A stretch of 5,846 nucleotides of DNA, from the NCBI GenBank assembly GCA_038209745.1, contig JBBQXJ010000130.1, positions 1 through 5,846 of the forward strand, read 5' to 3'. The notes beneath the pieces were generated by a model. That model saw only the letters and a program-made list of their open reading frames with translations, ran no database searches and had not been told where the DNA came from. Both the position numbers and the translations under genes were made by a program. Positions 2,530-3,005 of the stretch are shown in pieces. Within the stretch, counting starts at the first letter, position 1, and every line of letters starts with the position of its first letter. Source of the stretch: Verrucomicrobiota bacterium. GTDB lineage: Bacteria > Verrucomicrobiota > Verrucomicrobiia > Limisphaerales > CANJSG01.

Positions 2530-2976
2530 TCAGGCTTCGTGCAGCGGCGGCAGCACTTCGGCGTTCAACTGGAGCTGGCCATGGCGAACACCCTTCAGCG
2601 TGATCATCTCGTCGGCGATCTGCCGGAGGGTTCGTGCCGGGCCCTGGAGAAGGACCACTTGGAGGCTGTGTTGGTGCTCCAAGTGGACTAGCTGGATCGT
2701 GATGATCTCCTTCAGATAGCGATGCTGGACGTCGGTCAGCTTGTTCTGGAGGCCGCGCTTCTGGTGGTCGTAGATCAGGCTTAGAATGCCCATCATGATC
2801 GCGTCGTCGCTCCGGCCGGCATGCTGAACAAGCTGCTCTCGGACCAGCGAAGCGACACATTGGGAACGGTTCGCGAACCCACGTTCCGCCGCCATCTGGT
2901 CCAAGCCCTCCGCGACTTCCTGAGGGATCGAAACGCTGAACCGGACCAGCTCGTTTGTATCTTTGACGGTTGCCAT
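2530..2976 (-). CDS. nikR: NikR-family transcriptional regulator (CopG/RHH plus C-terminal ACT-like domain) with a degenerate nickel site
   Basis: 148 aa from the ATG at 2976 (the ORF track extends it to 3006). RHH part: VRFSVSIP...LDQMAAERGFANRSQ. NikR C-domain: LSLIYDH...QH...VHLEH...LQG...LKGVRHGQL. It aligns by eye with E. coli NikR, but H87 and C95 are replaced, so it is a paralogue rather than a proven nickel sensor. Confidence 0.88.
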   Translation of the reverse strand: MATVKDTNELVRFSVSIPQEVAEGLDQMAAERGFANRSQCVASLVREQLVQHAGRSDDAIMMGILSLIYDHQKRGLQNKLTDVQHRYLKEIITIQLVHLEHQHSLQVVLLQGPARTLRQIADEMITLKGVRHGQLQLNAEVLPPLHEA

Positions 2977-2979
2977 GGA

Positions 2980-3005
2980 TGTTACGACACGCAAGATATG
3001 TAACA
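2980..3005. promoter_or_regulatory. Palindromic operator TGTTAC-N14-GTAACA, probable autoregulatory site of the NikR-like protein
   Basis: Perfect 6-bp inverted repeat at 2980-2985 and 3000-3005, 3 bp from the nikR ATG. Two short half-sites about two helical turns apart is the known NikR operator architecture. Confidence 0.7.

Follow-up and report, generated by a model that had tools for sequence, protein, structure and literature searches.

A NikR-family regulator with a substituted nickel site heads a guanidine carboxylase operon and may stand in for a guanidine riboswitch

The DNA analysed here, hereafter the window, is an entire 5,846-bp contig (JBBQXJ010000130.1, or C130) of a Verrucomicrobiota genome assembly (GCA_038209745.1). 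Its central feature is a gene for a 148-aa regulator of the NikR family (2530–2976, minus strand, ATG at 2976) in which the nickel-ligand quartet H-H-H-C is replaced by H-L-H-S, as judged from Pfam matches, alignment to the Escherichia coli NikR structure 1q5v and an AlphaFold2 (AF2) model. The gene is the first of four minus-strand genes arranged in tandem, 18, 3 and 4 nt apart. The second and third encode carboxyguanidine deiminase subunits of the DUF1989 type: UAAP1 (1765–2511; TIGR03425, 328 bits with a cut-off of 205.95; DUF1989, E 1.8e-61) and UAAP2 (1114–1761; TIGR03424, 337.6 bits with a cut-off of 284.7). The fourth (3–1109) encodes the N-terminal 369 aa of a biotin-dependent guanidine (urea-type) carboxylase (TIGR02712, 2.7e-183, model positions 3–370) and is cut by the contig end. 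The remaining part of the carboxylase is found at 3730–6582 of contig C129, followed there by the genes of an importer: an NMT1-type binding protein, a permease and an ATP-binding cassette (ABC) ATPase. The two contigs overlap in protein terms (C129 6471–6584 and window 1–140 encode the same 14 residues), after which C129 diverges; the junction inside the carboxylase gene is an assembly break or a strain difference.

Guanidine carboxylases can be told from urea carboxylases, according to the methods of PMC11410670, by Asp at the positions of K. lactis residues 1330 and 1584. When our carboxylase was aligned to the K. lactis structures 3va7 and 5i8i (offset 593), Asp was found opposite N1330 and D1584 was retained; this region lies on C129. 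The Asp signature, the deiminase genes and the importer together indicate that the operon encodes a guanidine carboxylase pathway plus import. The 92%-complete genome yielded no full-length match for allophanate hydrolase, only generic amidases and a stand-alone AH_C domain (3647–4042). A first-pass annotation, made by a model from the letters and translated reading frames, had placed the regulator at the head of a guanidine/urea carboxylase operon, and the tight succession of UAAP1, UAAP2 and carboxylase genes bears this out.

Several searches place the regulator in the NikR family. Its product matched Pfam NikR_C (E 1.1e-25) and RHH_1 (E 6.3e-06), matched NikR entries of PDB in a sequence search (E down to 3.5e-29) and passed the NCBIfam NikR equivalog NF003381 with 124.7 bits (cut-off 105). 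The RHH_1 match, at residues 12–40, falls in an N-terminal ribbon-helix-helix (RHH) DNA-binding domain of about residues 12–54 (2815–2943, minus strand; model helices 19–32 and 37–53), where R12, R37 and S38 are common to canonical NikR and to the clade described below. The NikR_C match at residues 62–137 (2566–2793, minus strand) defines an ACT-like C-terminal domain that holds the former nickel site, H85/L96/H98/S104/Q106. The protein then ends in a clade-specific tail, EVLPPLHEA, at residues 140–148 (2533–2559, minus strand), recognised by motif conservation and by its interface position in the model. Public annotation names such proteins 'nickel-responsive regulator NikR'.

Residues 12–137 aligned with residues 3–128 of E. 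coli NikR (1q5v) with zero gaps at an offset of 9 (phmmer, HMMER). In this mapping H76 and H89 are retained as H85 and H98, H87 becomes L96, C95 becomes S104 and E97 becomes Q106. The codons are CTA for L96 (TAG on the plus strand, 2689–2691; two base changes from either His codon), AGC for S104 (2665–2667) and CAA for Q106 (2659–2661). At the square-planar site H76/H87/H89/C95 (E. coli numbering) the protein reads H, L, H, S. By structure it belongs to the NikR family, yet it lacks the ligand set by which a nickel-responsive NikR is defined, and it is probably not nickel-responsive. The gap-free alignment, the ligand changes and the extra tail had all been described in the first-pass annotation; the first two were recovered by the mapping on 1q5v, and L142, P143 and P144 of the tail proved invariant in 25 sequences. 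Its label of 'paralogue' had to be dropped, the protein being the sole NikR_C match in this 4.58-Mb, 92%-complete assembly.

Contigs from four public metagenome runs (four studies) span the gene and show no difference at the substituted codons, so the ligand changes are not sequencing errors; in-gene differences among these contigs are at positions 2753, 2917 and 2949. That homologues carry the same substitutions agrees with the earlier judgement that CTA at L96 was unlikely to be a read error. The loss of two of four ligands, and the presence of an IS1380 transposase on the same short contig, might suggest a decaying, non-functional NikR remnant. Yet the reading frame is intact, its fold is confidently predicted, the operator is conserved, and the substituted codons read the same in independent samples and are common to a large constrained clade; a remnant is hardly credible. 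Decay with substitutions unique to this genome is contradicted by the same sharing and the same agreement among the four runs.

The clade was defined from several sets of relatives. A word-indexed search gave 63 homologues out of 83 candidates. An alignment of the window protein with 31 of these homologues showed TIQLVHLE..[ST]LQ and the LPPLH tail as common features of the nearer sequences, and the canonical H-H-H-C in three distant sequences. Among 25 members of the window's subfamily, at 46–86% identity, 26 columns are invariant. A one-genome-per-species scan gave 45 loci, from which L040–L046 were dropped (RHH-only or very weak match); of the 38 kept, six encode H-H-H-C proteins and 32 lack Cys95. 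An exhaustive profile-free search gave 1,600 relatives (E up to 0.001). For a tree, 146 of the best 150 representatives (110–260 aa) were combined with 39 window and locus proteins, and the four ligand positions, E97, two positions aligned to E. coli K+-site residues and the tail were removed beforehand (IQ-TREE quick search, 184 rows, 122 columns). In this unrooted tree, in which 122 columns leave many inner forks unresolved, one branch sets 79 Cys-less rows apart from all 100 H-H-H-C rows, with a support of 99 in the Shimodaira–Hasegawa-like approximate likelihood ratio test (SH-aLRT). The tail motif [LIVM]P[PQ][LIVM][HYF], excluded from the tree, is present in 66 of the 84 rows with other ligand sets and absent from all 100 HHHC rows; every Cys-less relative that bears the tail lies on the far side of this branch from the HHHC proteins. 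The window protein lies within a 15-row subgroup (support 98) carrying a change of H87 to Leu or Val. An earlier proposal, that carboxylase-linked members might form a clade substituted at H87/C95, was supported with one restriction: there is such a group, lacking Cys95, bearing the tail and free of canonical proteins, and the H87 change marks only the window's subclade. A further suggestion, that the subfamily might be widespread, was supported; the Cys-less relatives form a large clade linked to carboxylase loci in several phyla.

Gene neighbourhoods follow the same division. Of the 32 Cys-less loci, 29 have both deiminase genes, UAAP1 and UAAP2, together with the carboxylase gene if the locus extends that far; among the HHHC loci, 0 of 6 have a deiminase or carboxylase gene in their flanks. 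The deiminase and carboxylase genes are directly downstream of the regulator in 27 of the 29, and 4–5 kb off on the other strand in L023 and L025. The Cys-less loci without deiminase genes (L010, L030 and L035) are one contig end and two Methylococcales loci. Together with 18 copies from a second sample described below, Cys95 is absent in 47 of 47 carboxylase-linked copies examined (29 + 18; one contig in both sets). Within the phylum, UAAP1 was found in 16 of 150 sampled genomes, with the regulator on the same contig in 12 of the 16 and directly adjacent in nine. Some loci have other arrangements. Four genomes of one genus of the phylum (G002, G010, G013, G136) have three consecutive DUF1989 genes and no regulator, and G052 of the same genus has two DUF1989 matches and a regulator. 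In the Methylococcales loci L030 and L035 the Cys-less regulator is beside a MOSC/FAD-NAD/2Fe-2S reductase gene, not a carboxylase gene, and a NikR-type operator (L030:3108–3135, L035:4750–4777) is directly upstream of the reductase gene.

A 28-bp inverted repeat (2979–3006, unstranded), our candidate operator, lies 3 bp upstream of the regulator's start codon, with cores TGTTAC (2980–2985) and GTAACA (3000–3005) at 14-bp spacing. Scored on both arms against the family pattern GT[AG]T[TG]A[CT]G, it reaches 14 of a maximum of 16. Among 48 regulator loci (587,697 bp) there were 40 segments scoring at least 14/16, against a mean of 3.6 in block shuffles, and 27 of these, from 25 of the 48 loci, lay within the 200 nt that precede the regulator gene. 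Where the regulator gene is internal (L015, L018, L019, L022, L038), the element instead heads the upstream importer operon, ~3.1 kb away; Opitutales-type loci L020, L026 and L028 have a second copy ~5.8 kb upstream. A strain variant in three metagenome runs has changes at 2978 and 2990, in flank and spacer, with both half-sites intact. In the window's genome no second site has one mismatch or fewer, and none other than this one exceeds 14 bits with a position weight matrix (PWM) (26.7 bits, with a PWM that includes this site); the PWM scan found no operator at the urease locus or elsewhere in the genome. Control of nickel uptake or of nickel enzymes is not what this pattern describes, the single genomic operator being at the regulator's own operon, and the regulator very likely acts locally on that operon.

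The operator resembles that of canonical NikR, with two short inverted half-sites ~14–16 bp apart beside the regulated promoter. The same architecture is found upstream of the canonical NikR genes of L031, L032, L036 and L037, from which we infer that the clade kept the family's DNA-binding mode. The half-sites in L009 and L011 are GTATGA/TCATAC, as in the nik operator of E. coli. Operators begin 11–12 nt after a TTGACA hexamer in L002 and L003, and 6 nt after a consensus sigma-54 promoter in L013 (perfect TGGCACG-N4-TTGCT, L013:405–420); to judge from their sequences, these positions are compatible with promoter occlusion. Sigma-54-type promoters also lie upstream of or overlap the operator in L006 (3432–3447) and L112 (185–200). 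A sigma-54 scan of the 48 loci gave plausible promoters beside the operator in only ~5–7 (L004/L005, L006, L013, L112; weaker in L096 and L117) and none in the window, so a sigma-54 promoter beside the operator is not a general feature.

Loci of this kind in Proteobacteria often start with a guanidine-I riboswitch (ykkC, RF00442), which has the same regulated genes and the same place at the head of an importer/deiminase/carboxylase operon. The riboswitch is a cis-acting RNA that binds guanidine directly; here there is a trans-acting protein with a predicted DNA operator. The window gave no Rfam match at E up to 1, its genome gave no RF00442 match, and no guanidine riboswitch of any class was found in 32 regulator loci. 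Within the phylum guanidine-I was found in 0 of the 16 UAAP1-bearing genomes, which makes the comparison uninformative there. We therefore turned to a UAAP1-anchored sample, the best 80 of at least 593 loci, from Acidobacteriota, Pseudomonadota and Verrucomicrobiota. The regulator is directly upstream in 18 of the 80 (all without Cys95) and absent from that place in 62. Rfam searches of 11 of the regulator-less loci, all proteobacterial, found guanidine-I in eight and guanidine-II in seven, and a covariance model was built from the eight guanidine-I matches. With this model there were 24 matches in 23 loci: 23 of the 62 regulator-less loci and 0 of the 18 regulator loci (Fisher p = 0.001, with related genomes that are not independent; one contig, L054 = L012, is in both our samples). 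At E up to 0.01 it also had no match in the window, in C129 or in the 32 earlier regulator loci. Regulator and guanidine-I were thus never in the same locus among loci examined; proteobacterial loci L057 (Thioalkalivibrio) and L114 (Rhodocyclaceae) have the regulator and no riboswitch. The first-pass annotation had proposed a test for this anti-correlation and a candidate protein sensor in place of the riboswitch, and the counts agree with it on both points. A separate observation concerns seven of the 11 proteobacterial operons (L068, L074, L082, L084, L108, L122, L126), in which guanidine-I at the head is accompanied by guanidine-II (mini-ykkC) between the second deiminase subunit gene and the carboxylase gene.

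We lean towards reading the protein as a NikR-fold transcription factor that has lost the nickel site, has kept the NikR mode of DNA binding and represses the guanidine operon. With its N-terminal RHH domain and a C-terminal ACT-like domain that would form tetramers, it would bind as a tetramer to the single operator TGTTAC-N14-GTAACA (2979–3006), which abuts the regulator's own start codon and would overlap the promoter or leader. The bound tetramer would repress its own gene and those for the two deiminase subunits, the guanidine carboxylase and the ABC importer, and would in this way perform the role that falls to the guanidine-I riboswitch in the corresponding proteobacterial operon. The inducer that releases the repressor would most likely be guanidine in its free form or an intermediate of the pathway, the opposite of nickel co-repression in canonical NikR. 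The core of this reading (a NikR fold, a disabled nickel site, a nickel-independent carboxylase operon, the riboswitch's place) goes back to the first-pass annotation and is supported by the clade and riboswitch comparisons.

A number of observations weigh against it. A scan of 2400–3700 for sigma-70 consensus promoters gave 0 sites, and the TTGACT hexamer of the window is 39 nt from the operator, which makes occlusion less clear than in L002 and L003. The division between regulator and guanidine-I largely follows phyla, with the riboswitch in Pseudomonadota and the regulator mainly in Verrucomicrobiota, and the exclusivity could mirror descent, not functional replacement. Moreover, 39 of the 62 regulator-less loci, mostly from Acidobacteriota (L050–L053, L056, L058, L059, L062, L067, L072, L077 and others), have neither guanidine-I nor a NikR-like gene within 8 kb, and the operon can therefore do without either. 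Rfam found no match in nine such acidobacterial loci. Of two that were inspected, L053 has no dedicated regulator as a neighbour, and L062 has a TetR-family gene and a sigma-54 activator 2–3 kb upstream. Lastly, the variation across the clade at all four former ligand positions does not locate any new site, and some histidines persist in ways that matter for the main rival explanation.

In that rival the protein would still sense a metal, nickel or some other, through the remaining histidines: when nickel is available it would repress the ATP-costly, nickel-independent carboxylase in favour of urease or a Ni-dependent guanidinase. We consider it unlikely, while noting that it has the NikR-family membership and the retained NikR-type operator on its side. 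No variation is seen at H71, H85 or H98 within the window's subfamily, H101 and H103 are nearby, and a residual metal site may persist there. Some carboxylase-linked copies keep three of the four ligands, HHHS in L011, L012, L048, L054, L078 and L089 and HHHY in L102, L117 and L124, and these sequences leave a possible metal role for those copies. Two of the three HHHY representatives adjoin the split in the tree, inside the group with SH-aLRT 99, suggesting that recruitment to the pathway preceded full ligand loss. The window's genome encodes a urease, and loci L011 and L012 have a urease alpha-subunit gene ~5 kb upstream. A nickel-dependent guanidinase route is known, as stated in PMC11410670. 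Against the metal sensor stand the absence of Cys95 in every linked copy examined and the drift at the other positions: across the clade, position 85 is R in 55% and H in 30%, position 96 is H in 61%, position 98 is H in 33% or Q in 32%, and position 104 is T or S. Residues H71 and H72, found in 98% and 82% of canonical proteins, occur in at most 38% of the clade. On the sequences, such variability says that the old nickel site was abandoned. The window protein itself has Leu two base changes from His at H87, and neither its urease genes nor any other place in the genome has a second operator. Neither a NicO transporter nor a NiFe hydrogenase was found in the 92%-complete assembly, and a carboxylase of the guanidine type is no alternative to urease. 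The best material on a residual metal response is in loci of the L011/L012 type; in L011 (315–2171) and L012, as also in L054 and L078, all from Chthoniobacteraceae/Verrucomicrobiaceae, an HHHS regulator goes with half-sites GTATGA/TCATAC and with the upstream urease alpha-subunit gene.

What the clade conserves in place of the ligands bears on whether the NikR-like repressor senses anything at all. Its newly conserved positions are E90 (93%), Q111 (97%), P113 (89%), L117 (96%), M61 (81%) and Q39 (80%), and P143 (95%), P144 (88%) and H146 (81%) of the PPxH tail, which canonical NikR lacks. Q39 occupies the position of E. coli Glu30, a K+-site residue. With a 62-row alignment AlphaFold2 predicted an RHH domain and a beta-alpha-beta-beta-alpha-beta fold with a predicted local distance difference test (pLDDT) score of 91.7, the last eight residues scoring 71. 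The top Foldseek matches were all NikR, the best being P. horikoshii NikR 2bj9/2bj1. The protein thus has the RHH plus ACT-like architecture of canonical NikR (E. coli 1q5v/2hza, P. horikoshii 2bj1/2bj3/2bj9, H. pylori 2ca9/6mrj), at 36% identity to the P. horikoshii protein, and a tetramer is predicted here too. A four-copy model of residues 58–148 scored 0.94 (best control 0.00), a pass that likeness to solved NikR tetramers may explain; of 30 proteins solved as pairs of one chain 20 reached the score mark, compared with 1 of 23 solved as single chains. The runs had at least 95% of their contacts in common, with a partner pLDDT of at least 91. In this model residues 85 and 93–98 are at a subunit interface, and L96 touches L96' of the neighbouring chain where NikR holds nickel; L96 may substitute for the metal bridge. 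Residues 88–90, 111–113 and 141–148, which include clade-specific positions and the tail, come together at one subunit interface. A new ligand or interface site might be formed by E90, Q111, P113, L117 and the tail; the modelled cluster offers targets for mutagenesis and does not demonstrate a pocket.

The same model would suit a ligand-free autorepressor, whose C-terminal domain merely holds the tetramer together, with L96–L96' contacts and the tail in place of metal, and which damps expression or sets its basal level. Autoregulation is implied by an operator abutting the regulator's own start codon, the former ligand positions drift freely, and L96 and the tail are at modelled subunit interfaces. 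The residues E90, Q111, P113 and L117 and the PPxH tail are, however, of polar or exposed kinds and have been conserved in three phyla or more; catabolic operons that include an importer usually need a signal, and the protein replaces an RNA that senses a ligand. We think this alternative, which the first-pass annotation had also raised, very unlikely.

If the repressor does respond to a ligand, the signal could still be other than guanidine. The ACT-like domain might sense nitrogen status by binding glutamine, arginine or a related metabolite; this co-repressor would turn guanidine scavenging off in cells with ample nitrogen. ACT-type domains commonly bind amino acids, a co-repressor would preserve the logic of canonical NikR, the pathway scavenges nitrogen, and a glutamine-synthetase-like gene is present in some linked operons (L024, L004). 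By contrast, a pathway-specific sensor would better fit a regulator that has one genomic operator, that is found in company with guanidine import and carboxylase genes only and that stands where other loci have a riboswitch for guanidine itself; and the sigma-54-type promoters of L013, L006 and L112 would already bring in nitrogen status through an enhancer-binding protein. This makes nitrogen sensing distinctly improbable. A pathway-specific signal is favoured because the regulon has a single operator, because the association with guanidine import and carboxylase genes is exclusive and because the regulator alternates with a guanidine-sensing RNA. We give guanidine or a pathway intermediate an even chance of being the effector.

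A more ambitious and more tentative version of the favoured reading, plausible to us but short of probable, is that the clade represents the first protein to act as a receptor for free guanidine, in which a metalloregulator fold has come to sense a small organic cation. In it the nickel site at the tetramer interface would have been sealed by hydrophobic or Arg substitutions and a pocket made from Glu90, Gln111–Pro113 and the neighbouring subunit's PPxH tail. Guanidinium would free the tetramer from its 28-bp operator, and the protein would have displaced the guanidine-I riboswitch, or been displaced by it, in different phyla. By mechanism alone, such a protein might be likened to MetJ-type RHH repressors, in which a metabolite sets DNA binding. 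MetJ is an RHH repressor that uses a small organic effector as co-repressor and has no ACT-like domain. The differences from canonical NikR are plainer: two of four nickel ligands are missing from the window protein, Cys95 is missing from the whole clade and the HH pair at 71–72 is lost, and the target is a nickel-independent guanidine pathway, not nickel uptake, with inducer release the likely mode in place of metal co-repression.

The rest of the window lies beyond the operator. A stand-alone gene for the C-terminal domain of allophanate hydrolase, 131 aa (3647–4042, plus strand; AH_C, 1.1e-39), is divergent from the regulator, which does not imply membership in its regulon. Weak similarity to the end of an amidase domain runs across a stop upstream of its ATG (tblastn from 3494), and a 69%-identical stand-alone AH_C copy adjoins the carboxylase gene, convergent with it, in L011 and L012. 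The 640 bp from the operator to this gene (3007–3646) contain no recognised gene, RNA family or consensus promoter; a terminator-like hairpin is found there on the minus strand (3214–3197). An IS1380-family transposase gene (4818–5846, minus strand) reaches the contig end in split frames, N-terminal at 5345–5845 and DDE at 4818–5400; variants in other samples have small insertions at 4888 and 5230–5236 and a 15-nt insertion behind 5466.

In the main texts of the literature searched, we found no paper linking NikR-family proteins to guanidine or urea carboxylase genes. Guanidine-binding transcription factors are still to be found, according to a 2025 review (PMC12186494). The clade described here is a concrete candidate for that question, with a small soluble protein, a defined operator and cultured carriers such as Verrucomicrobium sp. 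BvORR034/BvORR106 (L004/L005), Pelagicoccus sp. SDUM812002 (L028) and Thioalkalivibrio sulfidiphilus ALJ17 (L057). The name 'nickel-responsive regulator NikR' given to such proteins by current pipelines misleads inference of nickel regulons. If our reading is true, a protein guanidine switch could be used as a biosensor part, a protein switch and an RNA switch would alternate at one operon, and the family would show clearly how a metal sensor can be adapted to another signal with its mode of DNA binding unchanged.

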